A stretch of 64,000 bases of DNA from Marsupella aquatica (Eukaryota; Plantae; Marchantiophyta): the NCBI GenBank assembly GCA_973895155.1, contig OZ316896.1, forward strand, positions 8,701,539 through 8,765,538, read 5' to 3'. Numbering within the stretch: the first letter of the stretch is position 1; each line of letters starts with the position of its first letter. Shown one piece after another: positions 22,306-63,600 of the stretch. The notes beneath the pieces were generated by a model. It was not told where the DNA came from, did no database searches, and saw nothing but the letters and a program-made list of their open reading frames with translations. The position numbers were made by a program, and so were the translations under genes.

Positions 22306-23006
22306 TTGATTCCATAGTAGGGTCGTTAGTATTTCACTTGTTATTCTTCTTAGTTTTGTTTTAGTGTTTTTTGTGTTTTAATTATATTTTTTATATAAGC
22401 GATAAAACAAACTGATGGCAAAGTAGGTTTGATGTTTACTCTTAGCATGATGTCTTGGTTTATAATTTTCTTAAGATTACTTTAAAAATATTTTCAATTA
22501 AATTCACATTTATAACACATGATTGTGCTGTGAGATTGTCAGTCAACTATTTGTTGTTGTTAGACTAATGTTTTATTAACGGTTCTTTTAGCAGTTTTTA
22601 AGGGAGTTGAGTTGTATAGAATCATCACTAAACATCAATAAATGTGGCTCGTATTGCAATTTGCTTTCCAAAGCGTTGATGTGTTGTAATCCACCTATCA
22701 AGGTAAGAGATAATAGAATGACACTCATAGTAAAAAGTCTGGAAATTATCAACCTATAAGTGGCTTGTAAACAGTCTGCGAAATGATGAACAAACAACAA
22801 CAGATGTTCAAGAAGCAATCAATGATGATATTGTAATTGTGAAATGAAGACTTCTATAAGTTATTTCATGAACTCATAGTTGTAAAATCCTTCTAGAAGA
22901 ATAGGGAGTTCATGTCCACCCTAACTTTTGAATGAATAAGACAAGGTATTCACAAGATACTAAAGAGAAATTCTTGCATAAGTATCTCATTTCTCCTCCA
23001 ACATCA

Positions 23007-28200: not shown

Positions 28201-29750
28201 AACAAAAAAAATCTCTCCTAGAGCAAATGTGAAAAATACATGCACTATCTAGAATCCAGTCATCACTACCTAGATTTGACAGTACGTTGAGAGCATAACC
28301 TTGACATCACAATATGTCATCATCATTGATTAAATCTACCTCATGCGAGCTCGATGCTGCGTTAGCAAATGCAGTAGGGACCTTTACTCGACAATCCCTT
28401 TTCATGTGGCCAAGCTTGCCACAATTCCAACATGCAAGAGGCTTCCTCTCTTGCGATTTCCCTCTGGATTTAGATCTCCCCCGTGATGTAGATCTAAACC
28501 TGTTCTGCCCATTCGTGCGCTGCGCTGCTCTCCCACGGTTCACGTTCAGCGCAGTGCTAGAAGATGTGTTTGTGATTGACCCAGCTTCTTCTGAGCATCA
28601 TCAGACAATAAAGAGCTCACCACCTCATTATACGGAATGGACTTCAGATCTCTATACAAGAGCACCTATTTCAAGCCCTGATATGATGGCGGTAAGGAGC
28701 TTAGCAGAAGCAAGGCCTTATCCTCATCTTCAACTCCTTTTCCTAGGTTTGACAGATCCACCGCTAGATTATCAAACTCATCCAGGTGATCCTGCATCTT
28801 GCTCCCTTCCTTGAGCCTGAGGCTCATCAAGAGAGACTTCTTGTACAGCCGGTCTGACGCATCTTCCCGGTAGTACTTCTCTCTTAGAGCCTTGAACAGT
28901 GACGCGCAATCCACATAATCATCCAACTGCTTGATGATGTGTGGCTTGAGATATAGCATCACTGCATTGACAGCAATCACCTGCTCCTGTCTCCACTACT
29001 TCACATAAATCTCCTCTCCATCATACTGCTCTCGCGAGGAAAGTAGATGAGCTAGGCCCATGGCCCGTAGAACACCCTTCACTTGTTTCTCCCACAGCAA
29101 GTAATTAGTACGACTATCATACTTCTCCACCTCAAACTTCACTCCTCCAAATCTAGCCATCTCCCTCTTCTTCCCAACTACCAACAACTCTGGTAGTAAG
29201 ACAGCTTCCTCCACTGCACGCCGCACCGGTGATCGTACCGGTGTTACTAGTTCCTCCTCAAACGGTAGCAGCTCCTCCTCAGACTCTCTGTCTGACCGTT
29301 GCGATCCTGAAGCTCCACCGATGCCAATTCTTCCAGTATCCTCCGAGTCACTCATATGAAACAATCACCAAAAAATGTCACCTCCCAGGCATGCTCTGAT
29401 ACCACTTGTTGAGCATAGACGACATTCGTAACAGCAAGCCCATGAACCATCCAACGCACAATAGTCGACACAGAGATATACGTGGTTCACCTCCACATGA
29501 GGTTACGTCCACGGGAACACACAAGAGCTTTACTACATTCTAGGCCGACCGGCCATACCAAGCATCCACAGCACAAGCTCTCCCTATCTCTCAACTAGCT
29601 CCGTAACAATGAGTCTAAGTTTCATCAGGGTCTGGCATCAGCCCTGGCTATATGCACAACAGCACTACCGCTAACACTAGCTAAGCCCTAACCCAAGTTA
29701 GCCTAACGGTAGTTAACTCATGAGTCACAAGACTAGAGCAATATCTAACA
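25269..29750 (-). mobile_element. Ty1/Copia LTR retrotransposon, 4482 bp, non-functional (stops, frameshifts, integrase deletion)
   Basis: 344-bp LTRs at 25269-25612 and 29407-29750 (TG..CA, about 14 mismatches by eye), TSD TTTAT, tRNA-iMet PBS TGGTATCAGAGC (29393-29404) and a PPT next to 25613. Domain order is gag (CWNCGKLGHMKRDC) - PR (WILDSA) - IN (WHFRLGH, HSDVW, RSDNGGEY) - RT (YVDD) - RNase H (YVDSD, TEAEY). Confidence 0.97.
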
Positions 29751-40868: not shown

Positions 40869-41564
40869 AGTGTACCGTGTGCCCCATTCTCCCAGAGTCC
40901 CTGGGCCTCCCGCAACAGCAAGTTTGAGGAAACCAGACCACTCGAATGAGATGTCGGGGAAGGACATTAGGACACTCCTCCAGACTTCCAGATTTGAGGA
41001 ACTCCGCCCTTCATGGCTCCATCCAATGCGTGTTGTACTGGGTAAGGACTCCACAAAACTGGAAGGAAAAAAGCTACACACACACCACACCCTCATACAA
41101 TTTACACATTCGCAGCATTCATTTCAAATTTTTGAAATCTGCAATCTGTCCACAGTCTTTCCAGCTCATAACCAAAATACTTGCATTCCAGCAAACTTGG
41201 CCAAGTGTAGACTTCTCGGCGCCGTTGAACCCATGTCAATACAAAGAGTTTACTCTTTCTAAGTGTGCACTCCTGGGAAGTACTTGTTGGAAGTAGAGGA
41301 CTATGGTGGACTGGTTTGAGGGTTACTAACCTATGAATTTATGACCAGAAATTGAGGAAAATATACGGTTACTAACCAATTAATTTTTGACCAGAAATTG
41401 AGGATAATGTAGGGTTACTAACCTGTAAATTTATGACCAGAAATTGAGTAAAATGTGACCCGTGACAACCATAAGTTTTTGAGCTTCCTTGGAGTAGGGT
41501 TCAGGTTCAACCCCTTCCCCAAAAACCTCCATTATAGTACACTAGCCCCACTCCTGTGTGTTGC

Positions 41565-42035
41565 ACAAAAGATGTCAAGGTGAAGAAAAATTTTGAATTG
41601 AAAAAAGATGTTGAGGTGAATAAAGATATATGTTAAGGCGAGGAAAGGATGTTGAGAAGAGAAAAAAGATTTCGTGATGAGTAAAGATGTCAAGATAAGA
41701 AAATGATGGGAAGATGGGATAAAAGAAGTCAAGGTGAGAAAAGACGTTGAGAAGAGAAAAAGATGTCAAGGTGAGAAATAGATGGCAAGATGAGATAAGA
41801 GATGGCAAGGTGAGAAAAAGATGTCAAGGTGAGAAAAAGATGGCAAGATGAGAAAAGGATAAAATTTTGAGGTGAGAATAAATATCGAGGAGACAAAATG
41901 ATGTTGAGGAGCGCAAAAGAAGTTGAGGGGAGGAAAGATATGGAGGGGAGAAAAGATGTCAAGGCAAGAAAATGATGTTGAGGTTAGGAAAAGATATGGA
42001 TGGAGGAGAAAAGATGTGAAAAAGATATTGTTGCA
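41565..42035. repeat. GA-rich degenerate minisatellite (~20-bp unit aaaagatgtcaaggtgaga)
   Basis: Roughly 20 diverged copies. Confidence 0.75.
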
Positions 42036-42605: not shown

Positions 42606-45074
42606 ACCCCCCCTCTTTTTTTCATTGCCTCCCTGATTGTCACCTCTCCCCCTTTCTCTTGGGCCGCCTCTCCCTTCTTCCCCCCTTCCCCCGACCCCTC
42701 CTAAAAAAAAAGCAACTAAAAGCAAGGGTGTGCCTTTTCTCCTTTTTTTTCCTCTAATTGCCTTATTATTAGTATCTTTATTTTCACTTTCCTTTGTTCC
42801 ACTTTGTCTCATCCCTTATCTTGTACTTATGGGAGGGTATATACTATTCATCCCTTCACCCATGGGTGTATATCATTAATTCCCCTCCCTATTTTGATCT
42901 TTATGTCTCATAGTTCTTATCCCCTCACAATGGTGTCCCAAGTGCCCCATTCTAATGGCAACACATGGCATTCACATAGAGCCTATGTCACACATACCCC
43001 CTTATTAGAGAATCTTTGTGCGTACCAAAATACTTTGTCTTGCTTGGGTTAGAGATATTGTTTTTGACAAATGAAAGGCTAGGATGAAAGGGCTTATAAA
43101 TCAAGGGTCATGAGATCTTCCCTCTAAACTTGGTTTTTGTAAACCTATTACATCCACTTATGGCCGGATAGGGTATTATAATAGTAAAAACATTATTGCC
43201 CACAAAAAAATTATTTCAGAGCAAGAGATTATGTGAATTCCAGATACCTCCAAAATGGCAAAATGGTTATACATCCCTTCAGAATTTATATATAGAATAA
43301 TGATGGTCTGGGAAATTTGATGTGGGTGCTCGCCATGTTAATTGCACTCAGGAAGGGCATTATGCCCCGTTAAGTGTACATATTAATTGCACTTATATAA
43401 CGCCTTGCTGATTTTTATCTTTGCAAGTTGCGGGACATTCATGGAGAAGAATGCACTGGTCAATATTTTGATAAGCTATCATGGACATCATCCTCTACAA
43501 TATAAAACTAGAAATCTCTTAGTCCTTGGAGTGTATTGAGATCCCGTCACCAAACTATTATAGGCAATAACTGTTCTCTCTTTTTGGGGCCTTATGGCAC
43601 ACAATGCCTTGTACACAGGATTTCATCATACACAAAATGTGCAACCAAATTGCACCCTCCATGTTAAAAACAAGGGAAGAATGGGACTCGTTTTGGGGGG
43701 CACTGTTGCACACATACCAGATGTGAAAACAAAGTGCACCCTCCATTTAAAAAGGCTCTTACAGGACACATTTTTCGGGGCACTATGGCAAACAAGCCTC
43801 ATACACAGGATATATTATGTACAAAATGTGCAAACAAATGGCACCCTCTGTAAAAAAAAAGGTTTAGCCCGGTTTTACACTTATGGGGTTGGCACTAGGA
43901 GAGGGCCGGCTGTACCTCACGTCGCCCAATCCGTTGGCACAGACAGCCAGACAGGCGCAGCCGTGACCGCATTCAAGGCCCCAAGGTCCTCAACGCACTG
44001 CCGTCAGAGAGTTCAATTCGCGGCGTCGAAGATTTGCCGTGACGGATGCAGTTGCCAGCCACGACAGCGCCAGGTGCAGAATTTGGGGTCCGGCCTTTTT
44101 ACCCTGTAGGGGACATGATTTGTCAGTTCCCGCTCTGCACTGCGCTGTGCATGACATGTGGCCAGCTGTGTCCCGGTACTGAGATCCTGTCAAATGGGTA
44201 ACCGAGGCAAGCAGGTAGGCGCGTTGGTCCCCACGCCATGGTTTTGTGTAAGGTAACCCAGGGCCTGTTCTGGGGCGGGTCATTTTTTAATGTGTTTTTC
44301 TTTGTCGCTATGGTGGGGTCCATCACTTGCCTGAAGCAGAAAATGCGAAGAAGATTCCTTGTCTGAATTTGCTGGACTATTCTGTGATCGTTAGATCTCC
44401 CCAAATTTAAAGATAATGGTCCGATTTTGGCTAATATATCTCTCTAAATTTAACCCTCATGATAACGGCTACTGCGTCCGTGGCTAGGTGGGAAAGTTGC
44501 TAATCAAGACAAAAAGCATGGTTCCCTTGTGCCAAAAAGTAGTAAAGACTTTTTGAGTGAGGTGGAATCTGGCTAACTTTTGCCACATAAAAAAAACTCT
44601 GTTTATGGGTGAGTCCTAGGGGGGTTAGAGGGTCTTTTTCTCAATACCGAAAATTTGCCAAAGTCCACCTCACTGAAAGTCTCCCCACGGTCTAGTAAAC
44701 TTTTGCCAAACTTTTTGTGTTCGAGTAGAGGATCTCCAACCCTTACTAGAAAGTCTTATCTTACCTACTGTAGCTGTTGAGTACTAAAGTACAAACAATC
44801 ATGTCCAACCCACCCATCTATTGCAACTCTATGGGATTTCCAGGCACTGGGTTTCTTATTACTACTAGCCCCGATTACCCGTTCTTTGAACGTGAATAGC
44901 GGAGAGGATAATAAAAAAATTATCAAAATATATTTTAGATTCATATTCTTTGAGGATTAATGAAATGATAAAAAACCCATCATTTTAATAGTCATATATA
45001 ATATATCATTCTCCTTGATGTGCACAGGCATTTTGTATGCACATCCATGTTCTATGCACATATGTTGTGGTGAG

Positions 45075-45790
45075 TGTCGTGACATATAGTATCGTAGCCA
45101 TAGTGTATCAAAAATATACAAGTCACCGGCAATGCATATGTGCAAGCTGCTAGCAACCAACATCCTTAGAAAAAGTCCAATCACATTCACAAGTGCCAAG
45201 AAAAAGCAACATAGGTGGTATGTACGTAGTGGAGGTGTAAACCTCTGTATATAAAAGGCGTGATAGAAACAAACGTACTGAAATCGAATCAAAAACCGGC
45301 GAGATGCCAAGATCGGCCGGGAGCATCTAACGAATCACTGTGTGAATTCCGTGTACGGAACCGACGAGCAGCCTCTGAAAAACTTTGTCTCACAGCGATT
45401 CAAGAAGAACTGAAAAATGGCAAAGAAAAACATGCCCTAAGTAGGACCGGGTCCAGGCATCACACTAACAAACACCTTTGCTTCAAGAACGGCCCAGACT
45501 CGCTACAAGAACATGACACTAACTCAAGTAGTACACTAGCCCTAACTATATACTAGCGGGCATGCGAGGGACATGCCGATGTGCACAAGAGGCACTGTCC
45601 CTCGGCATGACAGCTGTCGTGACATATAGTATCGTAGCCATAGTGTATCAAAGACATACAAGTCACCGGCAATGCATATGTGCAAGCTGCTAGCAACCAA
45701 CATCCTTAGAAAAAGTCCAATCACATTCACAAGTGCCAAGAAAAAGCAACAGAGGTGGTATGTACGTAGTGGAGGTGTAAACCTCTGTAT
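45075..45790 (-). repeat. 3' terminal repeat block: B1 (45615-45790), gc, A2 (45251-45612), B2 (45075-45250)
   Basis: B1 and B2 are both 176 bp with about 3 substitutions. A2 matches 55476-55821. A G7 tract (45791-45797) directly precedes B1 on the sense strand. Confidence 0.93.
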
Positions 45791-45829
45791 CCCCCCCAGA
45801 CCACAGCTAAAAGGAGGGCTGAAGAAATG

Positions 45830-47816
45830 TCAGGTAGCACGTGGAGCACAGGAAGGGCAAAACCATAACCCTTCTGGCACCTGGGTAAGTTCAGGCCGAA
45901 GGCAGAAAAGATGGTACCCTCCATTGCAATTATCACACAGCAGCATCTGGTCAGCATCATCAATTCGCAAACACACTTTGCAAGGGTAGTCCACAGGTGG
46001 AATCCAGGTAGAAGTCACAATGGTGGGATCCAGGTTAGGCAGATGACAAGGGGCACAATTCTTGGCATTGTCAGCAATTGTGCGCCCATCTGCCCCTTGT
46101 AACTCTAGCACTCCAGACGGTCGAATAGCTTTAACCCTGAGAATAGTATGACTGGTAGAGGTGTCCAGGGTGTCGTTAGCTTGCCGCTGCAAGTACACAA
46201 AATCTCCTACATCAAACTTCCTGACCTTGGGCTGAAAAGTGCCCCCTCGTGTGTGTGCATAACGTAGTGTGTCCCTATGCTGTGCAATGGCCAAATTCTC
46301 CATGGCCATGGGCATAACCCTCCTGAATAGGGCAGCCCTCTCAGAGATCACATCAGACCAAGTCACAGCTGAATCCAAGTCCACCACCTGAAGCATGTGA
46401 GCAGCAATAGCAGAAGGTGGAACTGGGTGATGACCAAACAACAAGAAGTAGGGAGAAAAGTTAGACAGTGATGCATGTCTGGACATCCTATACCCCATGG
46501 CAATGTAGGGTAAGGCCAGGTCCCAATCCTCCTTGTTTTTGGTGAGGCAGATCTTCCGGAGGCCCTTCTTGCATGTCTGAACCATGCGCTCTGCCAAGCC
46601 ATCTGCTTGTGGGTGATCTCGTGACGTTCGGCGATGATCAATGAGGGCCTGATCAAACAGCTCCTGGAACTCTCCTCTGAACTCTGATCCCTGGTCAGTG
46701 AGACATTCTGCACAAGCTCCAAAGCGGCTGAGAACTTGTTGTAGGAATGCCTGGCTGGTGCTACGGGAGGTCTTATCCGGCAATGCCACAAGTTCTATCC
46801 ACTTGGAGAAATGCTCTATCATGATCATGATGTAGAGATTACCCCGAGACGTGAGGGGTAATTCTCCAGCCAAATCACATGACCAGCGATAAAACATGCC
46901 CTGAATAGGGAGTGGATGAAGTGTGGGTTGCCGAGATGTGAAAGAAGTCCTCACCCTATCACATTGTTCACACCGGGCAATAACATCTTGAACCTGGCCA
47001 TGCATGCCTCTCCAATGATAATGAGGGACCAAGAGGCTACAAGTCCTCTTAACGCCAAAATGACCAAGCTCAGAATGTACCTTACGGATAAGGCCAACCC
47101 TCTCATGAATGGGTGGAACCACCACTTCCCTGTCTGGCAAGCAGCGCACGAGATGATCTCCCTTCCACAAGTAACACTTGGACCTTTGCTGAATTCGGTC
47201 TCTCTGGGTTGTAGTAACATGTATGGGGTACTCCCCATGCTGCAAAAATCTCAGAGTGTCGCTGTCCTCCCATATGTCCACCACAGGTTGGTCAACGATG
47301 TAGCATGGCAGCAAAGCAAGATAGGTAGATGCATGAAATGTAGGCAGGATGAAAACCTGGTCAAAATCCTGCCGTGCATCTGAGGAATCATCAGAGGCAA
47401 TCAAAGGGCTGCGGGACATAGTGTCAGCATTTTGATGTGTCACACCAGGCCTATGAATTACCTCAAAATCATACTCCTGGAGTATGAGTGCCCAACGAGC
47501 AAGCTTGCCAGTAAGCTTGTCGTTGGTCATCAACCACTTCAAGGGCTGGTGGTCGGTGTAGAGAACAAACCTGGTCCCATAGAGGTAGGGCCTGTAATGT
47601 ATTACAGCCCACACAACAGCAAGGAATTCACCCTCATAAGAAGAATAATGACTCTCTGCCTGATTGTTGCTCCTGGATGCATAGGTAATGACGTACTCTT
47701 TACCTTCCTCATCATGCTGGCCCAGAATGGCACCAATCCCAAGGGCACTCCAATCTGTGTGTAGCACAAAGACCTTGCTGAAATCAGGTCTTCTCAGCAT
47801 CGGGTATTCTGAGAGC
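45830..47816 (-). CDS. RNase H - DDE integrase - PHD finger, open frame
   Basis: RNase H: LHTDWS, YEGE, YTDH. Integrase: VHSELGHFG..CEQC, CDLAG, TDQGSEF, LAERMVQ. Terminal PHD C4HC3: CKVC...LLCDNCNGGYHLFC...WFCPSC (45848-45982). Confidence 0.95.
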
Positions 47817-48473
47817 CCCCAGCCTTTGTAAACTAAAGAGGTATACGTGCGTACACCCCCCTCCCTAGTACCCCTTATTATTTTTGGAAGCCTATAAAAA
47901 TTTCTCTTGTTATTCTTAAAAACTTAATTTTGGAGAATAAATCTGCCCCTTTGAGATATTATAATTTCACATTTTACACCATTTATGAAAGCCTTGAAAA
48001 GTTATAAATTCATCATGTGCAAACGGTTCTAAAACTGACGGGAGTGTTTTGGAAGGGTTTTGGGTACATACATTTTTGTGTTCGTGACCCTTTAACCCCA
48101 AACTTCAACTTTGGGGCATTTCTGAACCATAGGGCAGGGTAGTCAGGGTTCAAAAGCTCCAAAGTCCTAAACTACTCTGAATCATAGATGTTGCAAACAT
48201 AATTATATGTCATATACACATGTTCCAATAAAGGGTGGCCACAAGGACCAATCCTATTGTGACGCGTGTCACATCCATATTACATCACCTCTTGAAGCAT
48301 ATTAACTTGGGCGACATTTATATAAGCCTATATTAGTTAGAAAGGGTTCTTTGAATAAAACCATCCCTTGATATTTCTAAGCCAATTATAAAAATTAATC
48401 TCAAATCAGATTTTTTGCACCCTTCATCCGTTCGCACGTCCAGCCCATTATTAATAATGTTGGGGGCCCAAGG
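47817..48473. mobile_element. 657-bp AT-rich non-autonomous insertion with 8-bp TSD between RT and RNase H
   Basis: ctgagagc is duplicated at 47809-47816 and 48474-48481. Removing the insert restores LKEKLSEYPMLRRPDF. Short inverted cagcctt/aaggctg motifs lie near the ends (hAT-like, uncertain). Confidence 0.85.
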
Positions 48474-49480
48474 CTGAGAGCTTCTCCTTCAAAGTGGCAA
48501 ATGCTGCCTCAGCATCTGTACTCCATGTCCAAGTCACATTCTTTTTCAACAAAGCATACAATGGGTGTGCAATGGTACTGAAATCTTTGATGTAGATCCG
48601 ATAGTAATTGCACAACCCAATAAAACTCCTCAAAGTGTGAACATCGGTAGGAGTGGGCATTTCCAAGATGGATACCACCTTGGCCCAATGAGCCATGGTT
48701 CCATTTGGAAGAATGCGATGCCCAAGATATACTACTGATCTGACAGCAAATTCACACTTCTTGGGGTGTATCTTTAGGTTCACCTTCTTAAGCCTCATGA
48801 ATAGCTCCTCAAGGTCAAGTAGATGCTGGTCAAATCCTTTGCTGTGGACCAACACATCATCAATGTAGCATTTCAGAAACTCAGCACCTTGAAGAACCTG
48901 GTCCATGACTCTTTGAAAGAATATGGGCGCATTCTTCAAGCCAAATGGCATCACCAACCACTCCCATAGTTGGTTACTACCATGGAAAGTTGTTTTCTTG
49001 CGGTCTTTTGCAAGCAGCAAAATCTGGTTGAAGCCTTGCCTTAGATCCACAAGAGTGAAGATGTCTGAGTCTCCAATACTGTCAAATAGCTCCTCTGGCC
49101 GCGGCATGGGGTACCTGTCCTGGGGTGTGACCAGGTTCAATGGCCTGTAGTCCCCACACATGCGCTTCTCTGTCCACAATCCACTGGAATCCTTCTTTGC
49201 TGGCATCACTATAGCTGCCGCAAAATCTGATGTAGATGGCTGAATAAGACCAGCTTCATAAAGCTCTTGGCACCTCTCATCCACCAGCTGCCACTCATGC
49301 TTACTCAAACGGTGTCTCCGCCTGAAGATAGGTGTTTCATCAGCCAACTCAATGGAGAACTGCATAGTTTTGCACTTACCCAAGTCCTTCATAGAGAAAG
49401 CAAACACATTCTCATGCTTGAGGAGCAAATTCAGCAGCTGGTCCTTTTGTCTTTTACTCAGGTGGTTGCCCATGATAAAT
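48474..49480 (-). CDS. Gypsy reverse transcriptase domain
   Basis: RMCGDYRPLN, VDLRQGFNQI, MPFGLKNAP, YIDD, YLGH and SFIGLCNYYR. Confidence 0.95.
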
Positions 49481-49824
49481 GTGTAGTTGGCAACACTAGG
49501 AATAGGACCTAATGTACTCGTGCTTGAAGAGCCAGAAGTGCCAACCTCTCCACTGTCCAAGCTGCTAGCATGCTGCTGATAAGGTGATGAGGCCTCTCCA
49601 AGGCCTGTTGTACCTGCTGATCTGAAGTGGTCCACACCATGAAACTCAGAAATAATGTCAGCCGCATTACAAGGGACCTCCTCCCCCCCAACACTTGGAC
49701 TGAAGTGGTGAGTGTTGGACAGAGGTAAGTGCACCTGGTCTGGATGCCATGCAGCAGCACTGTGGAGTGGTAGGGCTGGAGCCCCTAATGCTGGAGGAAT
49801 GTACATCTGAAAAAGGATGCAAGT

Positions 49825-50770
49825 GACCAGAAGCCAAGTGAGAGCATTGAGATCCATTACCCTGCCAAGTAAAGCATTCCTGGCCAGCCTGGTGATTTTG
49901 GTGTGACCTGTAGTACCGGGTTGGAAGCCCATAGCCCGTTCTCTCTCCTCAGGACTAGGTTCATCCCATGTACCGGTAGAATGTCGATAAACCAGACCAG
50001 GACCATCACCCTGAAAAGCATGTGCACCTAGAAAGGACACAAATGTAGGCCAAGCAGCATGGGGTTGTCCAATGGTATTGGCTGGATACCAAGGTGCTGG
50101 CTCTTGCCGTGTAACTGGTTGCAAGAACTGTCAGGATCCAAAATCTGGTCCACTGTAAGGTTAGTGTCCCTGGATGTGTGGTGAAGAGCCATCTCCAGCA
50201 AGGAAAGTGGTGCAAGGTTAGTCCAAAAGTTACGAAGACGATGTGCATAAGAACCACAGTGCACTGCATCAATGAGAAGGGGTGGTCCCAAGTAGTGCTG
50301 GACCACACTGAAATCCTCTTTGACCTGTGGACGCTGGTCAAACTGAGATGGAGTATTCTCAATGATATAACCAACAGCAGGATAAAGGGATTGAGCCCAG
50401 GTGAGAATCTGAACCAATGCTGTGAAAAGGCCAGAACGAGAATCATGTAGTCCAGCACCGTGACCAGCAGTTGAAAACCCTTGGCATTCCCAACCAGCTA
50501 TGATCAAATCAAGGGAGCCAAGAAGGGTTAAGTGTCGGTGTTGGACAAGCTGGATATCTGGAGGGAAGAAAGAAAATGTAGACTTCCATGCACTATGTGG
50601 AAACTGCTGGGGAAATCGCTCTGAAAATTCCAGCAGACGGGATTCAGCCACTTGCCTTGCACTTGGATCAACATCCACATAGATGTACTGCTTCACCACC
50701 ATGCCAAACTTTAGGAGAGCTTCCAGGCCTGTAGAAATGCCACCAAAAAGCTCAAGCAATGTAAGGCCAT
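49825..50770 (-). pseudogene. DNMT3-like C5 cytosine DNA methyltransferase domain in the pol polyprotein (one frameshift near 50120)
   Basis: Motif I LLELFGGI, II YVDVD, III DI, IV DLIIAGWECQGFS, V SGLF, VI IIENT, VIII IDA..HRLRNFWTNL, IX ERERAMGFQPGTT, X RLARNALLGR. Order and spacing follow the DNMT3 catalytic domain. Confidence 0.92.
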
Positions 50771-51139
50771 CTGAAGGAGGAGTCCATGTAACTGGTGCGC
50801 TCAAGATTGGGGCTATTAGTTGTCCATTATGCTGCCCAAGGTCCTCAAATTTGTGCAATGCAGCCACCAAAGGTCTATGGGCTACTTGGAGCCGTTGTAC
50901 CACCTCTGGTTGATGATCCACGTTGCTGGAAAGTGCTGCTATACGTGCAGCAGCATGTGCAGTAGCCACCTCATCATCATCCTCCTCAATCCAATCCTGC
51001 AATGGGTGGTTGACATAGGTAGCTGTGTGCACTACTTTGAACACACAGTGGTGAGCCATAGGGGTATGGGCACCATGCAAATCAAGTGGAATGTATCCCA
51101 AGTGTGAGCCATCCGTATGCCAATCAACTCTGTAGTATA

Positions 51140-51500
51140 CATGCTCATGCCAGTTGTCAATGGTAAAACCTGGTGGGAACAAAGCCTCCTGGCCAATGAG
51201 CACATCATACGTAGTGGCATTGGTAACCAAACATCTGACTGGGAAATGCAGTTCCTAATGTGTACCTCCATTAAAAGTGAGAGTGAGTAAAGTAGAACTC
51301 TCACCCAGCACATCCTCCACAGTGCCACTAGCAGTCCGAATGTGCCACCTGGATTGCTGTAAATGATCAGTCAGCAGTCCCATCTTCTTGGCAAACTGAA
51401 TGCCCAAAATTACTGGTTGAGCGCCTGTGTCTAGCATGACCACCTGAGGAGTGTGACCCTCCAACTTGACTGCTGAATTCCTGTTGTCAACAATGGCAAT
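51140..51500 (-). pseudogene. Retropepsin aspartic protease (stop at 51255)
   Basis: VMLDTGAQPVIL...IRTASG...YDVLIG. Confidence 0.88.
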
Positions 51501-52152
51501 GGTGGTGGAAACTAAAGTCCTGTCACTAGGCACCACTTTTGGCAAATGATGAGGTACCTTGTGAAGGGAGTTAGTGTCCACGGTCTTCCCACTCAACAGC
51601 ATAGCCAGGGAAAGATGAAGTAGCATGACCAGAATCAAGTGTAGCTCTGGTCACACAATTTGCAGCAATACTGTCATCTCTACCACTGGAAATCGGTACT
51701 GGGATAGCCAAACCAGTGGAAGCATGCAATGGAGAAGAAGAAGGTCCAGTATATACATGAGATTGGACCTCCAAAACCGGTGTCACAGGGGCTGATGAAG
51801 AATGCAGTGAGCCCTCTAGCGCTCTGATGACAGTTCTGGCATCTAGCTGTAAATCATGGCAACTGAAAAGTGGAGTGGTAAGAATCCTTTGTGCCATACC
51901 GGAGGTGAAATGCTCAAGCAGCTCAGGAAAAACAACTCCCTGTGAAATGTCAGCAGCACCTGGTGGTGGAATGGATGTAGCTACAGCTCCCTCCCCCCTC
52001 GCCAACAAGGTGCGCTCTTCAGCAAGTGTGAGTGGCTGAAAAGACTAGGGCATGACAGCCCGAGCTCCCCTGGCTCTAGTCATAGGACCAGCAGCAAGAC
52101 CATCAGCCTGTACAATGCGGCGTGTGGGAGCAATACGGGAGGCAGCACTGGC

Positions 52153-53673
52153 CTATTGGGAAGCAAAATAGGAAGGACAGAATGAATCTAAAAATTCTGC
52201 TGTAAGGCCAGGCTGTGTAGCAGAGGACAGCACACACTCACCCATATGAGCATCAAATGGCAAGCCATAGAAAGAGCGGGGTAGAGGTGCTGAACTGTCA
52301 GTGGTGCCTGGGCCAGGGATGGGTTGCACGTGACCAGCCGGTTGAGAAGGACCAGCAGAGGCAGTGGACTTGCCTTTGATGTTGGCAAGTTGGGCATGTA
52401 AGGACTCAACCTCATGAGTCAGAGACTGGAGTTGAGTTGCCTGTGCGTTGTGAGCCTCCTTCTGAGCTGGTTGCTTCTGTTGCTGCTTGGGCAATTTGTT
52501 AGCACTGGATGCTTTGCCACTGGAAGGAGGAGAAACTGATGCAGTAGGAGCCCTCCTAGCTTGTGGGGGAGTGGAAGCAAGAGTAGGATGAGGGGTCTAC
52601 TATCGTAGCTGCTTCATCTCTGGGAATTTGGCAAAACAAACTGCCTCCAAGTGGCCCACTTTTCCGCAAAAATCACAAGACAGGTCCTTAGCAACAATAT
52701 CACATTCATTAGCCTTGTGATTGGGGTTACCACAGTAGTTGCAAGATGGCAGCATGAAAGTAGCATGTGCTGGCTTGGTCTTGGAACCATACTGTGGCAC
52801 ACGGGAAGGGGTGGTCAGTGTAGGGGCAGTAGCCTGGTACCTGGATCGCGGGGGACGCGCAATACTGGCCTCATAATGTGCATGGGCCAACTCAAGTTTC
52901 TCAATAGTGTCATAGACATTGAGCAGGGTGTAGCTGTCTCCAAACTCTGAGAATACTTGTTGCAACACTTGCGAATGGAGAGCTGGTGTGCCCTCCAATG
53001 CGCGAAGATAGCGATGAGCAGCTTCTAGGTCAGTGATGCTCTGGGTGTCTTCCTTCAGCTTGAGAAGCCGGCGATACAGCATCTTCAATGTTTCATCGCG
53101 TTGCCTCACAAAGGTGGCCAACTACAGGATTTTGTCAGCACTCTTGATTGGGAATTCCAATTCAAGAACCTGGAAAAACTCAGCCACTGGATCAGCAAAG
53201 GCAGGGGAATCAATGGTGGGAGAAATGCCTGATGTAGCCTGTGCCAAGACAATGGGAGTAACTGGTGCAGTGGTGGGAACTGGAGTAGGAGGGGAAGTGG
53301 CAGGAGCAGCAACATGGGCTGCAATGGCATTCTGTAATGCCAGTTGTGAGGCAGCCGCAATTGCAGTGGCATAGGCAGGGTTAGGCAATTGTGTGACAGC
53401 AAGCAGCCATTGAGAATGTTGCTCATGCACATCCAAAGCCTTGTGGTGCACATACCTGGCTAGCTGCTTAAATGCAAAAGCATTTGTGAAGTTGCTGCCA
53501 TACTTCAACTCCAATTCGTAAACGACAGTGTAGAAAGTGGATTTGAACTCACGCAAAGAAACAGTGCCTGGCCGCCCACTGAAGTGCTCAATGCGGCCAA
53601 ATGAGTGACTGGCATCCATGCTGTATGTTGGTGAAGCTGGAACAATCACTGATGCAGAAGGAGAAAAAGGCAA
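52153..53673 (-). pseudogene. Gypsy gag with two CCHC zinc knuckles (in-frame stop at 53122)
   Basis: CNYCGNPNHKANEC and CDFCGKVGHLEAVC; FVRQRDETLKMLYRRL resembles the retrotransposon gag motif. Confidence 0.85.
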
Positions 53674-54109
53674 AGAAGTGATAGCAGGCTTCGGGGTAGA
53701 GGTGAAGCGACCGCCAAATGTAGCAGAAGGGTTGCGTGGTGTGGGTGCTGCTGCTGTCTACTGACGTCATCAAAATTGCCGAGACTCCAATGAAATTGGC
53801 ACCCACGGTCGTGGATCACTCCGTAAGTGGTACCGGGGTGTCGGTGGCGATGAGCTGCTACGACTCGGCTCCTCTGCTGACATGCTGCATGCTCACCCGG
53901 GGTGCCTAAATAAAAAATGTCCCCCTTCCCAGTGGTATGAGGTGCTGAGGGGAAAGAAACTGACAAGAAAAATGGGATCTAGCCCCAAGGCTAGGAAATA
54001 AGACCCACAAAGGAAACAACCGTGCGAGGCAGAAATGTGTAGAATGTGTAAGCGCTGAGAAACTGTCAAAGTCTATGCAGATGACATGTGGTGGCAGCAA
54101 AGAAATCCG

Positions 54110-54870: not shown

Positions 54871-55475
54871 TCCCCCTCCCCCTCCTTTCCTCACGCGTAT
54901 GCTCCTGCTCGGCTCCCCCTCTCCTCGCACTTAATTAAATGCTGGCAGAAATGAGAGGGCACGATGCCCTTTGCGCAGCCTGCCTCATGCGAGTCGTCGA
55001 CAACAAGGCGAAGGAAAGAAAAATAGCCAGAAAAGGGAGGCGCACAGAAAAATGACGGCCGGTGAGGAGAGAAAGAAAAACCTCGGGAGTGGGTAACACT
55101 AACATGGGCGTGCGGCCCTATGTGCGTGGTCGCCCCTCGGCCGTGTGCATACACAAAGGTGCGGCCTCCGGCTGCCAGGCGGCAAGAAAAGAAGGATCAA
55201 GAGAAGGGGCGAAAAGGCCCCCCTGAAATCGCAAAACCTCCCGGAAAGTGAGAAGCGCTCCCCTCGTCTCCTCTTGGGTGTACTCCGCTGGTCCGCAAAT
55301 TTAAGTGTATACACATAAGGGATGTGTATACAAAGAAAAATCTAACTCTAACTCCATCACTAGATTTTTCTTCAAATAAATTGCACTGCTGTCGACAGAA
55401 AGTGTTGACCGTCGCGAGCAATTGAGAAACACAGCGTTTCTGATCTTCTTCCCTTCACTCGGCAGTTCTTCTTGA

Positions 55476-55821
55476 ATAAAAGGCGTACTGAAATCGAATC
55501 GAAAACCGGCGAGATGCCAAGATCAGCCGGGAGCATCTAACGAATCACTGTGTGAATTGCGTGTACGGAACCGACGAGCAGCCTCTGAAAAACTTTGTCT
55601 CACAGCGATTCAAGAAGAACTGAAAAATGGCAAAGAAAAAATGCGCTAAGTAGGACCGGGTCCAGGCGTCACACTAACAAACACCTTTGCTTCAAGAACG
55701 GCCCAGACTCGTTACAAGAACATGACACTAACTCAAGTAGTACACTAGCCCTAACTATATACTAGCGGGCATGCGAGGGACATGCCGATGTGCACAAGAG
55801 GCACTGTCCCTCGGCATGACA
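55476..55821 (-). repeat. 5' terminal repeat A1 (346 bp) with TATA-like motif; no B segment
   Basis: Matches A2 with about 6 substitutions, a 1-bp indel and a 15-bp indel. Sense TAGTATATAG lies at about 55756-55765. Confidence 0.93.
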
Positions 55822-58800
55822 TGAGGCCATATTACCTATATTTTTTTTATGTACATGTCATAAGTTTTTCCCATGTATATGATGACCATGCACATGATGA
55901 CCATAGAGTTACGGTCTAGAGGCTTCACTCTAGACCCTAGCTTGTGAAAAGTAGGCTGCAGTTCGCGCTTTATTAGTAAGATATCTGGATTTAAAGGACA
56001 ATATACAGTTTTGACTGTCTTTTAGGTTAGTTGTTGGGTTTTCAAGATGTTCGTCCTACTTGTGCTGTGAAAACTGATTTCTAGTGTGGAGGCAAATTGT
56101 CCGGTAAGCGGAATCCCGCAGGCCATGTAAATACCCTGGCTAGTGAGGCTTTGGGCCCTGAAAAGCCAAATTTGAATCCCCGCCTGTACTACACTTCCAC
56201 CCTCACTTCCATCGTGCCACTTTTTGCTCTCCAGGTGCCAGAGCATGTGGGGAACTCGTCCTTCATTTCTTTGAACTGTCTCAGTGTAGCCATCACAACA
56301 GCATGAACAGCCCTCCTGTCCTTGAAAAAGTGACAATATGTGGATGCACCTTTGCTTGTGTGCTATAGCTCTTGATCCCAAGCTTGAATGGTGAGTCCTA
56401 AACTGGTACACAACACCATGGAATCCTAAACTTGCCACTCACTGATTTTACTGCCTTGCACATAGAGCAATTTGGAAATCAATATCAAAATTGGTGTTGA
56501 CAGACTAAGTATTTACTCTGTACATTAACCTTATTAAGGATGAAAGATAATCTTGAGGCTAATCAATGTTGATCAGCCCATGCACCTAGGGAGGTGCTGC
56601 CCACTGCCCGCTTGTACCTCACCCCCTATTGGGTTAAGTGCTAGTCACAAATAAAGCTGAGCATGAGCCCTACTCTGGTGCAGTGACAGGCAAGGTGGGC
56701 CCAGGTTCAAAAACTACTGGTAGTAATTTGAACCATTCTTACACACATTCCACCCAAAAGTGTGGATTTATTGGAGCTACCAATACTTGGAAACAATTTG
56801 CAGAGAGCAGGGCGTGGGCAGCTGACTACTCAAGGCTCATAATGAGCCTCAAGGTGCTTTTTGTCCTGAATGCATGCTTTGGGGATGGTCCGGTCTTATG
56901 GGTGAACCTGAGGGGGTTGGAGCCAGCATATTTTTAGTGGCAGAATTTTGCCCAAATTCTACTTCACTAATAGTCTTTGCCACTTATTGTGAAAATTTGC
57001 CAAAATTTTTGTGTTCCATTCTCCAGTTTTCTACCTACCCTCAGACCCCATTAGCCAGGATCTAATGGTTGTCCTTAACTCTAAGGAGATAGAATCTAGG
57101 ATAGAACAAACAAAAATTACACCAGGAAATCCATATGGATGATAATATTCTTACTAAATTTTCCTTCACCAAAAGTAAAATTTGTATAGCAAAAGAGGTG
57201 AAACCTTAAACTCACCCAGGTTAGAGCCCATGGGTTTCCTTGTGAGTCTTCAAAAAAGTATGTTTGGGTAGGAGCCACTGTCTTGATCCATGCCACTAAC
57301 AAAGAGATTTAAATCAGAGAAAATGGGGCCAGGCTGGCTGCAGTTCACGATTACAGCCTTTAATGTAATTATCACTATACTGAACTAAAGTTCAGCCAGT
57401 GCCAAACTGCACGGGTTTGAACAAAAAAGGAGAATAGAAAGTGGGTGATTGCGTTGCTTCCCCAACAGATTCACCTTTTAAATGCTGAAACTCAATCAAC
57501 TTTTGCTGAAAGCTAAGGATAGTTTAAACCATCTAAGTCTCTCCCATAAGAGGTGCCAAATGTAAGGAACTTTCAAGCATGGAGGGAGATTTGTCAGTCA
57601 ACTATTTTCAAAGAAAGTCAACTTTGATAGTCACTATCTTCCTCAGCACCCAGTGGAATCTGGTTTTGTTGGGTTGCTTAGAAACCACTTGGAAAGATCT
57701 TTCCATGAGCCTAATCCAGTAAAATTCCATTAAAAATTGAGAGACTTACAAATTTCAAAAGTTGACTGACTCATTTTCTTGCCACCTTCCACTCATCAGT
57801 GTAGTATGTACTACATGAGAAAAAGAAAGGGCTCTGGGTTGCAAAAAACATCCAAGCATCTTGACTGCAGACATTGAGGTCCATCCAAGCTCTTCCAAAA
57901 ATTTCATCAATCCAGAATATTATCTCACGTTTGTTTTCTCTAGTTGTGATCCATAGTATAACTCCTATCTAATCAACATGAACTCATTTTATTTATTTTT
58001 ATTTATTTTTAAATACACTTTTATTGACGAAGCCACCACAGCGAAGACCAGCAAGGCAGACAACAAACCAAACTGTGAGCCACATGCGCCAAAAAAAGTG
58101 ACTCAATGCCAGAACCATAACCATCCCAACGGATCACAACTCATGAATTCAACATGAACTCATGAACCATTGGGTTGGCAGTCTTTTTGTGTGTTATTCC
58201 GCTCCGGGTATTTGGATCCTTTTGGCCTTGTGTTTGCAGTCCGTGCAATTGGTCTCCTTCTGAGTTGTGAGGTAGGGGCTCTTGGTTTGCCTCTATCTAT
58301 TTAAATACCTTGCCTTTAAAGATGTGCCTAATTACCATACTGTCAAATTTTTATTGTATTTGTTCTACTGCAAGGGTTTTGCTATATGGGTACTTGGTTA
58401 TTGACTTCCATATGTCGCATGCTGATTGCTTGGAATTTTCATCTGGATGGTTTCCCCATCGACATTGTGCAGGATAGTGCCAACGGAAGAGACCATATGC
58501 TGACATGTGTCTTGTGCAGGACGGATTCATGGTTAACAATTCTCTATATTTGGCTACTACCATCTTCCCCCAAACAAAGTGCCTGGGCGTTGTGTTCAAA
58601 GTATTTTTTTTCTAAAAACACAACGTCATTTTAACACAACACTCGGGCGCTGTGCTCAAGATGTTACTCTAAACTGTTCTACATTGAGCACAAATAGTAA
58701 AACATTCAAGAAGCATATGCCAATGCCGATATTTAAACACAGCGCCCTGCAAGTACAAAAAATGGAAACACATAATCAAAATATGAATACAATGTCGGGG

Positions 58801-60159
58801 CGCACTATTCTAATCGAGTGCCCCACTATTCAAATATATGGCCTTGTGTGGCCTCGTGTTGGGGGAATATACATTAGTATTATAATTACATACAATTTTA
58901 GTGGCAATGTACTTCAAACTGATTTTTGGAATAATTGGTCTAGTTTTGTTGGTGTATTTAGATAAATCATGTGGAACACTGAGGCCCAGTGTACTAATTT
59001 GAGAGTGCCTGTCCCAGTTTCGATAACCAACTTTTGTGCCTATGAGAGCTTTTCTGTTGAGCATAAAAGTGTAGGAATGATCAGGTTCGTGCATGGTGTG
59101 GGGATAGTTATTAATTTCTTTTCAAATTATAAGGCAAAGCCATAACTTATTTTCCCGGATTTCAGTTTGCTTGAATGTTTTTCAAGATTGATTTATCAGT
59201 GTTTAGTAGAATCTTTACTGAAATATATATTGTAAATGTTTTTCTAAGTTTCACGAACATTACCTAAATTTGGTCCCTTGACTGAGATTTTTAATAAGTA
59301 TATTATGTTTTGGCCACCGTGATGTCCCTACACTAATGGCTTGAAAGGACAATGAGCACAAAAGCGAAAGAAACATTGATGATCCCCAGGTTACACGTGT
59401 CCAACGGTTTTGAGCACCTGGGCTTCTGGAGACTGGAGACTATGGTTGTGTAGGTGGACTGGCGTATGTGGGTTGCTTACCTGCAAATAAATGTCCTTTC
59501 CAAGAGAATAAAATAAGAATGGGAATCCAAGAATGGTGACTGATTACCAAACATCACAATTTTGATATGGAACATTTGACGCAGCGGGCTGCTAGGGAGA
59601 ATTAACTCCTATAATACACAATTGAGCCACTTTTTAGAATGATGAAGTCATTCAAATTTGCAGGGCACAAAAATTAAAAAATCTAATCAAAAGAAATAAT
59701 AAAACAAAATTAAATTATATTGAATGTGAAATAAAGAGTGACACTTTTTCCAAGCAAGAACTAAAGGGGAATTGGAAATGTCAGGGAATGACAATACACA
59801 ATAATAAAGTATTTTATGGACCATCTATGTATAATATTCTCCATGCATACTAAGCCCCATACATAGAAATAATATTCTCCATGCCTAGACATTGTACCCA
59901 TGGTAATCTATATCCTAGGAGTAGTTTAAATGATTACAAATATTACATAATGTAATAGAAAAGATCAAACCAAAAAATAGTACAAAAGGCCTAAGGGGGG
60001 AGGGGGGGTGGGAGCGGGGCTGGGCCGGGGCGGGGCGGGGAAGGTAAAGGTTTTCAAGGAATTACAAAATGAAAAATATAAAGACAAAAATCATTCTTGA
60101 CTGGTGATACTTTGTGGTTGTTGTTACTCATTTTTTACGCCCTTTTTCTGCAATATTTT

Positions 60160-60640
60160 TTTCTTAAGAACATCTTGGACGACACCACATCTTTTTTTCT
60201 TAACGGCATCTTGGGTGACACCACATTTTTTTCCTTAAACAACAACATCTTGGGTGACACAACATTTGTTTTTCTTAATGACATTTTAGATGACATGACA
60301 TCTTTTTTCTTTATAACATCTTGAATGGGAGACATGACATCTGTTGTTCTCAATGACTTCTTGGCCGACACAACATTTTTCTTCTCAACAACCTCTTGGC
60401 CGACATGACATCTTTTGTTATCACCGACATCTTGGCCAACACGACATCTTTTGTTCTCACATCTTGGGCAACACAACATCTTTCTTCTCAACGACCTCTT
60501 GGCTGACACGACATCTTTCTTCTCAACAACCTCTTGGCCGACACGACATCTTTATTCTCAACAACCTCTTGGCCGACACGACCTCTTTTATTCTCAACGA
60601 CATCGGGAACGACGTCTTGGCCGTCACGACATCTTTTGTG
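60160..60640. repeat. Degenerate ~39-bp minisatellite (tcttggccgacacgacatctttt..ttctcaacaacc)
   Basis: About 12 diverged copies. They generate the spurious repetitive ORFs in the ORF track. Confidence 0.8.
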
Positions 60641-63600
60641 CAACGCACGGGTATTGAGCTAGTTAATAATAATGATTTGGGAGCTGCCTTTGCTATGCTA
60701 CAGTCACTGATGGCACCAGACGTGTTTAGCGACCCCACCCTTATTACAATATTCTTTTGTCAGGGCAACTGCAATCCCTCTCCTGTCTTTGTACCAGTGG
60801 GGTCTTGTTTTTCCTTCCTATTCCCACAGCTTGGGAGTGAGATTTACTACCTTGGAGCACTTTCATGGGACCGGGATTGGGATCGGCAGGGAGTGAGTTT
60901 AGCACCCGGTTTAGCAGGAGCTCCCCCCCCCCCCTGGTTCAGTCTGTGACACCCTAATGTAGCGGCCCTCCATTTTTGACTGCCAAGACTGGCAGTTGTG
61001 CGCTCCAGAACCAAGCGGGAGTGAACCAGCCAATTAAGACCAGTCAATGGTTGCACCAGTGACAAATTGGACATCTCTGCGTAGGTGACAGTGGGTCCAT
61101 CTTGCCAGTATTGGATAGCAAGGGTGGAGGGCGCAGTGAAAAACATATGAGTCATCCATGTGCACTTTCATCCAGTTGCAAAATTAGATTGAAGTTTGTT
61201 TGGGTAGTTGAAGTATTACGTCCTAATAAATTGAATCTCACATGTTTATTGGCACTGTTGACAGGCACTACACTAAGTCACTAGGGAAAAACAGATAAAT
61301 TTATTTACCTCCTATTGAAAGCCAAGTGACTCTAATAGATGAGCATAAATTACTCATGGTCAATAAAATATCCAGAATATCTAAACCACCAATGCCCAAG
61401 GAGTTGGGGGAGGGAAACTAGTCACTTTTTGTTTCTTGTGAGGAACATTATTGACTTAGTAGGGTGACCTGGATCCACCATGGTTTGAAAATGGATAGTC
61501 TCTGTTTAACCATCATTGTGATATGAGCTACAGGTCTCTACCTCCGTCTCTACACTCTTGTACTCTACAGAACAATTCAATGTGTTTTTTAAATCTAAGT
61601 TTGACTGAGTATAACTAAGTGTGAAACATATGCAAGAGGGACTTGCTTGATAGGATCCCAAAATGAAAATTGTTACTTGATAGAATCCTTCACTGATCCA
61701 GATCATTGACTGACCTTGAATGAAGGTAGATTGACTGACCTTGAATGAAGGTACTGAAAAATTCAGGGGTCCTATCAAGTAAGGCCATTCATTTTGGGGT
61801 CCCATCACGCAAATCCGGCATGTATTCAATGATGAAAATTACAATATATTCCTGACCTAGTAGGTGCTCTGGAGTAAGGATATTTTCCCGCATGGCTAAT
61901 TGCCAGGTTCACAGGGGAAAATGTCCGGCCGCCCGAAGAAGGTAAGTTCAGGGAGAATACAACGTGGATGTCCCAAAGACAGGGCATTGTGCGCTCAGAG
62001 TGTTTGAGTGGGCCCACATTTTACCCGTAGGCTTCACGCATGTGCAGCGTGCATGGGCAAGATGACCAGAGTCAATCCTGGGACCTCACTCCTGCAAACG
62101 CTGCACTTGAGCCATCACGGCAAATACACCTCGATGTCAATTGTTTTTGAGGCAGACTACTTAAAGGGAAAAAATTAGTGTTCTTGGTGGGGAAATGACT
62201 GCTGTACAAAAGTAGAATGTCTATAATATTGTGGATCTAGTGGATTAAATCTAATCCTTTTTGTCTCTTTCCTCATGGGCTCCAAGTATGAAAGCCAAAG
62301 GGATATGGACTTTCCGTTCTTTAAAATAAGAATTTGGTTGCAATGAAATTCACCTTTTGAAGAAGTCAAGAAAGTTGCATGAATGAAACACTGTAATGAA
62401 GGAACCTGCCAAAAAGGTTGGATCACAAAATGGAATGAGGCAGCAGCCAATTCGCCCTTCACTAATTTCCAGTGCACTGTGAGGGCGACCCATACACCCC
62501 GCTGCCTTACCTGTCTGTCCGAGCTGCCCGGCGCCTGCCTACTATGAAGAAAAGAGTGTATTATGTGTTTCTGTGCATACACAGAGGTGTTCGGACTACT
62601 TTACACTAATTTCAGTGCTGGGATGGAAAATGATCTCAATAGTTGGCACAGCAACACAATACATAAAGCTGACTAGTTCCATGGTAACATAGTAACTGTT
62701 TATTACTAAGTTATGCTAAAATCACCCCAACTTTCTTAAGTTTCCCCCAAAACTTATTTAATTAGTAAGCTACCCCCATGGAGCCATCCTAGTTGCACAT
62801 TCCAACTATGTGACTTGTTTATGGCCATGTGATTCCTTGCAAGGGGGCAACTAATTAATTAAATGAGTTAAGGGGGCACCTTACTATTGTTGTTCAATTT
62901 TGTGGGTGAGATATAAAGAATTAAACACTATACTATCCAATCCTGCCCATTCTGAGTGATAGCCTTTTTATGGAATGTCATCTAGGTGGGAAGAAATCAT
63001 GGTCATTTTTTAGGAAAGTGTTTTATGTCTCCCTTTGATTGTCCAAAAATATCTCACATGCGTCTTTTGTGTTGAGCTCACCATCTGTGCCTCACCCTCC
63101 ATGCCTCACCCTCACCCTCCAGGTGCAACTCAAGGGCTTGTGCACATAGAACATAGTAAATCTCATAAATTTGACCATGTATGCATCTCCCTTGCTAATT
63201 GTGTCACTCAATGGTATTGCACTTGTAGAACACATAAAATCTCATTTGGCCAGGAAACAGGCACACAGGCCCAAAGTGGGATAAGCACTTTGGCAGAGCG
63301 GGGTGGGCATGTGCGAGTCCCCATTCTGGTAAATTTGAAAAATGTCGAGCATCTCCAAATGCTGACCTGGCCTGTGAGGACTGCCTTGGTTGCTTGTTAT
63401 CCCGGTGTAAAGGCAGGCAGGCAGGGCACAATGGCAGGCCAGCTACTAGACAAGTGAGCGGGGGAGGGCGGGCGTGTATTGTTGGTATTGTTGGAGTGAC
63501 AACCAATGGGTGGTAACTAACATACTAACCATTCATTCTCCAAATTTTGCAATGTTCCTTGGATCATTTGTCTGGAGCCCCACCAGGAGCCCCTCGTCCT

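Follow-up and report, generated by a model that had tools for sequence, protein, structure and literature searches.

A probably self-priming Ty3/gypsy retrotransposon of Marsupella aquatica whose inserted copies appear to end at a palindrome inside the copied LTR

Results

The window, a 64,000-nucleotide stretch of the genome of the liverwort Marsupella aquatica, carries on its minus strand a 10,747-bp element of the Ty3/gypsy type (55821-45075; Table 1). Its domains are gag with a zinc knuckle, protease, a DNMT3-like methyltransferase, reverse transcriptase (RT), RNase H, a DDE integrase and a PHD finger. The order gag-PR-RT-RNase H-DDE integrase is that of Ty3/gypsy elements (Pfam), and the best solved-structure match is Ty3 Gag-Pol (E 1e-35). 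The methyltransferase domain belongs to PF00145, and 29 out of 29 solved-structure matches are DNMT3A, DNMT3B or DNMT3C. A chromodomain match was not found in the element, the C-terminus of its integrase being a PHD finger. The copy is broken by stops, one frameshift and a 665-bp insertion. The latter (47809-48473) lies between RT and RNase H, is flanked by an 8-bp direct repeat and is not present in other copies; by eye, a terminal inverted repeat was not seen in it.

The repeats of the element are arranged in the order A1-internal-G7-B1-GC-A2-B2. The left end reads TGTCATG, the right end CACGACA, and CTCA flanks both sides. TG...CA termini and a 4-bp target duplication, as they are found in Ty3/gypsy LTR retrotransposons, are present. 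Two complete colinear terminal LTRs are absent: the repeats follow the pattern A...B-A-B, with the purine tract adjoining B1 and the primer site adjoining A1. The length of 4 bp is confirmed by an uninterrupted paralogue of the insertion site near 22100 and by a contig in which 45072 is joined directly to 55825. The element sits in a host repeat, whose uninterrupted paralogue 23 kb away represents the empty site (21888-22306 versus 44864-45072 plus 55855-55982). A scan for a tyrosine recombinase, which covered 13 element frames of the window, the long ORFs of four relatives (L079, L083, L086 and L089) and part of the short frames, detected none.

Simpler accounts of this layout can be dismissed. 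An ordinary LTR element with a truncated 5' LTR is at odds with the target duplication at both ends and with the same layout in 12 relatives. A-B is not the true LTR, since the primer site and the purine tract do not adjoin its ends. Finally, an assembly artefact is ruled out by the 2-19% divergence of B1 from B2 and of A1 from A2 within copies, and by the recurrence of the layout in independent contigs.

Elsewhere in the window we found a Copia element (25268-29750, minus strand) with 345-bp LTRs that are 96% identical, and broken PIF1-like helicase frames (16764-20786), which are probably a Helitron remnant. Two degenerate tandem arrays (41530-42030 and 60150-60680; units of ~19 nt and ~35 nt) share a 47-nt inverted arm.

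Table 1. Features of the element, in positions of the window and in the order of its minus strand.
Feature	Position	Strand	Remarks
Target-site duplication CTCA, left copy	55822..55825	-	contig joining 45072 to 55825 represents the empty site
Repeat A1	55476..55821	-	starts TGTCATG, left element end; 15-nt deletion near 3' end
TATATA word at -140, alternative promoter candidate	55756..55761	-	TATA-like motif of the first-pass annotation
TACTTA, aligned with the TATAAAA box of relatives	55647..55652	-	-31 in A1, -32 in A2
Self-primer segment in A1 (predicted)	55608..55622	-	predicted +1 is A at 55621, primer 12-14 nt; start inferred from TATA spacing in relatives
Primer-binding site (predicted), complement of the element's predicted 5' end	55463..55477	-	first 2 nt (AT) common to the end of repeat A
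gag region, zinc knuckle	52600..53757	-	interrupted by stops
Aspartyl protease	51255..51650	-	
C5 cytosine methyltransferase, DNMT3-like	50028..51254	-	PF00145
Reverse transcriptase	48451..50130	-	followed by the 665-bp insertion (47809-48473) missing in other copies
RNase H, DDE integrase (zinc finger, core) and C-terminal PHD finger	45830..47923	-	
G7 polypurine tract	45791..45797	-	directly before B1
Repeat B1	45615..45790	-	starts ATACAG, ends CACGACA
Internal attachment-like palindrome CACGACA-GC-TGTCATG	45606..45621	-	B1/A2 junction
Repeat A2	45251..45612	-	second primer copy (45412-45398); TACTTA at -32
A2.B2 junction CCTTTTAT.ATACAG	45245..45258	-	A end joined to B start; predicted joined cDNA termini
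Repeat B2	45075..45250	-	ends CACGACA, right element end
Target-site duplication CTCA, right copy	45071..45074	-	

At the inner boundary of A1 the minus strand reads ATTCAAGAAGAACTG (55477-55463). As stated in the first-pass annotation of this DNA, this is a perfect 15-nt complement of a segment inside A: the reverse complement CAGTTCTTCTTGAAT is found at 55622-55608 and at 45412-45398. Apart from these three sites, neither sequence matches anywhere in the whole window with up to two mismatches allowed. Chance is a poor explanation, as in a comparison of the 40-nt zone at the A1 end with shuffled A1 the longest perfect complement reached 14 nt in 0 of 3000 dinucleotide shuffles (maximum 13). 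The 15-nt helix is present in both the minimum-energy and the centroid fold of the window segment, which overall is no more stable than shuffles (z = -0.35). Homology between the A repeats stops at 55476 (...CCTTTTAT), so that the duplex overlaps A by 2 nt, in line with the annotated offset of at most 2 nt. Since the AT can belong to either side, the primer would be 12 or 14 nt long. Moreover, the annotation was right that a TGG-type tRNA site is missing: TGG is absent directly after A1, which excludes a full tRNA 3' end as the primer.

The 15 nt just before the end of A are present in A2 and missing from A1. Contigs from related runs, one of which extends into the primer site, carry these 15 nt, and the gap in A1 is therefore a deletion in the window copy. 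In the related contigs none of the 19 variable sites falls into the 30 nt of primer and primer site, a result that about 1 in 10 random placements would equal and to which we give no weight.

The best named protein matches to the element are from the liverwort Calypogeia fissa (79% identity over 80% of the query), and proteins of Klebsormidium nitens are 50-55% identical to the RNase H-integrase ORF of the window over about half to two thirds of it. We collected close relatives (the best 80 of 452 from one metagenome scan; 74 elements at 98% identity) and seven distant loci from a genome-contig scan (41-54% identity). Viral contigs gave no match with a single-protein query and only two unrelated loci (28-29% identity) with an alignment query. 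In the intact distant relatives L079 and L083 a single in-frame stop (L079:5083-5085, L083:3489-3491) separates gag-protease-DNMT from RT-RNase H-integrase-PHD, which suggests readthrough. The GC-rich loci L086 (5000-9913) and L089 (3061-9516) have the DNMT between RNase H and integrase, not before RT, and keep the palindrome and the G tract; both come from bins of prokaryotic assemblies, in which they are probably contaminants of algal origin.

The pairing between primer and primer site covaries across the family, a check that the first-pass annotation had proposed. L029, a close relative, pairs TAGTTTTTCTAGAATT with AATTCTAGAAAAACTA; compared to the window, three positions are changed in each of the two partners. 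There are thus three compensatory changes between the window and L029, and two more between L079 and L083, whose alignment is unambiguous. In total, compensatory changes keep the pairing in four sequence types, namely the window, the close relatives, L079 and L083. Among 22 decayed close relatives that show A1 and the primer site, at least 12 of 14 pairs are kept in 18 and all 14 in three, and only 10-11 in the remaining four; these counts are the best of a small register search without shuffle control and, coming from related copies within the best 80 of 452 of one scan, they are not independent. Distant relatives have perfect duplexes of 16 nt (L079), 13 nt (L083) and 12 nt (L085), and folds keep the helix in L006 (z = -3.7), L079 (z = -3.7) and L083 (z = -2.7). 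L085, whose 12-nt duplex is of similar sequence, is the weaker case, because it has neither a TATA word nor a second repeat copy that would fix the boundary. In L086 no complement of at least 10 nt was found within 600 nt after the junction, the best match to the contig head being 10 nt. L089 stops at the palindrome and L087 and L088 stop before it, so that none of them bears on priming. Taken together, the site differs among sequence types while the pairing is kept, and the claim that the element primes itself gains considerably from this. We put the probability that the 15-nt site is the primer-binding site of a self-priming Ty3/gypsy retrotransposon at about 0.88.

We then asked where the transcript would begin. 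In 47 of 52 A repeats of relatives a TATAAAA box lies 32 nt upstream of the first A of the primer; in two the distance is 31 nt, and in three the box was not found. L079 and L083 have a TATA word 29 nt upstream of this A, and upstream of the candidate primer of L085 a TATA word is not present. Given the spacing in the relatives, the primer is likely the 5' end of the transcript, as in Tf1, and the reservation in the annotation that it may not be is probably wrong. By this spacing, transcription of the window element would likely start at the A at 55621. The annotation had also pointed to an overlap of the primer with a splice acceptor-like sequence; this, too, is probably mistaken, as the pyrimidine tract followed by TCAGTT fits what we take to be a plant Y-patch and initiator. 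In L079 (8825-8856) and L083 (7228-7258) the predicted start is enclosed by an inverted repeat of 12 bp, which overlaps the primer.

Two other readings of the priming region have to be weighed. The primer of the window subfamily might be internal to a transcript that starts near the TATATA word at -140, in which case self-priming would leave a long 5' flap. That word is found in both A1 and A2, and the box at the canonical distance is an atypical TACTTA, which also occurs in contigs of related runs. We therefore only infer the start of the window subfamily. Yet the window aligns with the relatives in register, in spacing, pyrimidine tract and primer, with TACTTA simply replacing TATAAA of the box that they have at -32, and TCAGTT fits an initiator. 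An internal primer is thus unlikely, and of the annotated distance between TATA-like motif and primer only a part of the doubt stays, namely that for the window subfamily. A much smaller chance remains for a structural leader stem, next to or within which a tRNA or a tRNA half would prime. Half-tRNA priming does exist in plant copia lineages (PMC6317226). However, there is no TGG behind A; the site has five versions, one per sequence type, each of them matching the element's own segment; and the A2.B2 junction lies 0-3 nt from the end of the helix. Such joint change of the site and the element's own segment is not expected where a tRNA binds. ARAGORN detected no tRNAs, neither in the window nor in 90 other sequences. 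We regard tRNA priming as highly improbable, and retain self-priming from the 5' end of the transcript.

If the minus strand is begun at the end of A and the plus strand at the start of B, behind the G tract, then the copied LTR is B+A. In agreement with copying as one unit, rare sequence states are shared within copies far beyond expectation, both between B1 and B2 (53 versus 13 expected; n=25) and between A1 and A2 (100 versus 21; n=11). No internal alignment column separates B1 from B2; the only one that does reflects trimming of the ends. The A2.B2 junctions vary among 29 relatives: 13 have AT+AT, five a single AT, four a one-base variant, three one extra base, two an extra G and two a deletion. 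This variation looks like that of fresh joins between cDNA ends. The first-pass annotation had proposed that the end of A is a cDNA end, and the compensatory changes and the A2.B2 junctions agree on this same boundary. The B2 repeat of L029 extends 142 nt further upstream, so that it takes in the G tract and begins behind a purine run within the PHD coding sequence; it is best read as mis-primed plus-strand DNA and represents one event seen in two contigs. Tf1 cDNA often retains tails of primer site and purine tract (PMC11042837), and such tails, by analogy, hint at an advantage of integrating at an internal site. Junctions with a single AT may, by the same analogy, come about because RTs, that of Tf1 among them, are able to clamp overlaps of 2 nt (PMC3035444). 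In the window and the close relatives the overlap between primer site and B start amounts to AT only. The primer site and the B start of L083 share the 7 nt CACTTGA, a possible microhomology for the joining of cDNA ends (L083:6947-6955 and 7414-7422; see also L084:2770-2790).

The ends of integrated copies lie elsewhere. Where B meets A inside the element (CA-NN-TG), a 2-nt spacer was seen in 26 of 27 scored rows, the other row being mis-anchored. The palindrome (CGACA or TGACA-GC/GT-TG) is kept in L079, L083, L084, L085, L086 and L089 at 41-54% integrase identity, and its spacer variants AC, GT and AT would be expected from deamination of GC in CAG/CTG. The outer ends of the element lack this spacer and show a 4-bp duplication instead. 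In 20 scored copies the duplication has at most one mismatch in 14 (exact in eight, one mismatch in six) and 2-4 mismatches in six (two mismatches in two, four in four); two more copies could not be scored. In two of the four copies with four mismatches the duplication does match once the position of the end is shifted by one subterminal repeat. CA ends combined with a 4-bp duplication are the signature of a DDE integrase, which here would cut after CA on both strands.

Some further features of the ends were seen. Repeat A opens with an inverted repeat of 8 bp in the window (55818-55781, minus strand) and 10 bp in relatives (e.g. L044), whose arms differ yet stay complementary; it is possibly a hairpin or an integrase-binding pair next to the left end. 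The 3' end of B in close relatives (e.g. L013:12170-12200) consists of at least two tandem units of ~16 nt ending in ACGACA, and L018, L039, L040 and L042 are among the copies that end at the inner unit. The unit carries CG sites, which the element's own methyltransferase could modify.

Among copies with both ends visible, 13 have the form A-internal-B-A-B and nine the form A-internal-B, whereas the mirror form A-B-A-internal-B was found in none of the 22. The upstream B is also absent at three further 5' ends. The 3' ends (n=62) are B-A-B in 29 and B only in 30 cases. Most of A2, as far as the junction, is missing from L058, and L044 is a solo A.B with a near-exact duplication; the short forms and this solo A.B may derive from 1-LTR circles, from repair of the insertion or from later recombination. 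A circle with two equal palindromes should yield the mirror form and A-internal-B-A-B in equal numbers. The lack of mirror forms excludes a symmetric circle that is cut at either palindrome, and means that a simple circle model needs an added asymmetry. Such an asymmetry may arise, in our model, if the integrase commits to the LTR that is completed first, as the 5' LTR would be double-stranded after ~0.5 kb of synthesis following the second strand transfer, compared to ~10 kb for the 3' LTR.

From these observations we derive the following pathway. Transcription would start in A at 55621, as predicted from the TATA spacing in relatives. The first 12-14 nt, for which the covariation demonstrates the pairing, would fold back on the site after A; after an RNase H cut like that in Tf1, the RT would copy A from its 3' end. 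The plus strand would begin after the G7 tract, to which the tract itself and the identity of the repeats point, and yield a linear [B-A]-internal-[B-A] cDNA. Its two ends would then be joined to A.B, the sequence seen at the junctions. Finally, the DDE integrase would cut after CA on both strands of the palindrome in the 5' LTR; the 2-nt spacer would be lost and the element inserted as A-internal-B-A-B, with the ends and the 4-bp duplication that are observed. That the element primes itself, that its copied LTR is B+A and that inserted copies begin and end at the CA-GC-TG palindrome in the middle of this LTR is, as a whole, probable. The part that has the integrase cut an internal palindrome in combination with end joining we hold with somewhat less confidence, though we still favour it.

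The most serious competitor changes only the joining step. The integrase could open the 5' LTR palindrome on the linear cDNA and insert both pieces, the host then repairing the A2/B2 break either by end joining, giving the long form, or by annealing of B1 with B2, giving the short form; a free circle would not be needed. The nearly equal numbers of long and short 3' ends (29 B-A-B and 30 B only, of 62) speak for this, as does L058 without most of its A2 up to the junction. Yet the choice of the 5' LTR is likewise unexplained, and the short forms and the solo A.B of L044 follow equally well from later recombination or 1-LTR circles. We therefore consider this variant possible, at rather less than even odds. 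Alternatively, the transcript might run through B2 and be copied from its 3' end as proposed for PAT and Ngaro elements, so that A2.B2 is an inherited relic and the integrase makes only the left end via the palindrome. The layout is indeed that of PAT-like DIRS elements (PMC5890265), and the lack of A-B-A-internal-B (0/22) would be accounted for. But B1 and B2 share copy-specific variants and do not form separate groups, the A2.B2 junctions vary as fresh end joins would, and B2 of L029 starts at an alternative purine run, all of which makes this reading improbable. Joining of the ends of a [B-A]-internal-[B-A] cDNA thus remains our preferred account of A2.B2.

Discussion

Self-priming is established for the Tf1/sushi group and predicted for the moss Tcn1 and for copia TAR elements, and one plant survey assigned it to 12% of elements (PMC6317226). 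In Tf1 the self-primer is the 5' end of the RNA (bioRxiv 10.1101/2022.12.06.519325, PMC4600332). In Tf1 and Tf2 of Schizosaccharomyces pombe, and in the Tf1/sushi group including moss Tcn1, the primer site follows directly after the LTR and complements the RNA 5' end (bioRxiv 10.1101/2022.12.06.519325, PMC4600332, PMC6317226), as is predicted for the window family. Moreover, as in the relatives of the window element, the primer sequence of Tf1/sushi elements lies downstream of a TATA box. Tf1/sushi elements use no tRNA, which is likely for the window family as well. The Tf1 primer site also begins with AT (PMC11042837), and in the close relatives of the window repeat A still ends in CA before it. 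There are differences, too. Tf1/sushi elements have ordinary LTRs, the ends of which are the integrase sites, and a chromodomain, whereas the window element has a PHD finger, a DNMT and ends that are internal to the LTR. The duplex of the window family is 13-16 nt long, unlike that of Tf1/sushi. The Tf1 pretzel consists of three duplexes; next to the primer, folding predicts a second one for L079 and, weakly, for the window, with no clear third duplex. Self-priming here is likely and would be a new instance of a known mechanism, by itself no more than its extension to a lineage bearing PHD and DNMT domains.

The layout A1-ORFs-B1-A2-B2 is shared with PAT-like and Ngaro elements. These, however, have a tyrosine recombinase, in contrast to the DDE integrase, purine tract, TG...CA ends and 4-bp duplication of the window element. 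The nearest described system is KnitGypsy-Dnmt3 of Klebsormidium nitens (de Mendoza et al., 2018; PMC5890265), which, like the window element, has Gypsy domains with a DNMT3-like domain in the polyprotein and, according to the legend of its Fig. 4c, DIRS-like A-coding-B-A-B repeats; our comparison with the K. nitens elements is one of pairwise protein identity (50-55%). The accessible text of that paper contains no priming mechanism, internal palindrome, target duplication or integration model. Besides this paper and a passing mention in bioRxiv 10.64898/2026.05.21.726589, we found no earlier description of priming or integration in this Gypsy-DNMT3 family, in a search that left out most subscription journals and repeat databases.

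The integrase of foamy virus cleaves the palindrome at the junction of two LTRs; it cuts each strand after CA and leaves 2-nt 5' overhangs (Delelis et al., 2005; PMC1180852). There, the palindrome consists of the joined cDNA ends and colinear LTRs are restored, whereas in the window element it is a fixed site inside the LTR, apart from the cDNA ends, and the product is permuted. Integration at an internal palindrome is the surprising part of our reading; within the literature searched we did not find it in print, and we lean towards it being real.

Self-priming would fix the start of reverse transcription, and the integrated ends would therefore not be the copied ends. On balance, though with less assurance than for the priming itself, we favour the view that the Ty3/gypsy elements of one green-lineage clade, which spans algae to bryophytes, no longer use the same ends for reverse transcription and for integration: its self-primed, ragged cDNA termini would be joined, and insertion would always proceed via the palindrome of the 5' LTR. 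Such elements have probably been missed or mis-filed as DIRS, because standard LTR finders require two terminal LTRs. If this view is correct, the split-repeat layout of PAT and Ngaro elements arose independently with a DDE enzyme. For retroviruses it has long been disputed whether 2-LTR circles can serve as precursors of integration, and end-joined 2-LTR DNA is usually a dead end. In this family every replication-competent copy would have to pass through such DNA, and a natural family that seemingly depends on an internal palindrome makes the question of the 2-LTR circle testable.
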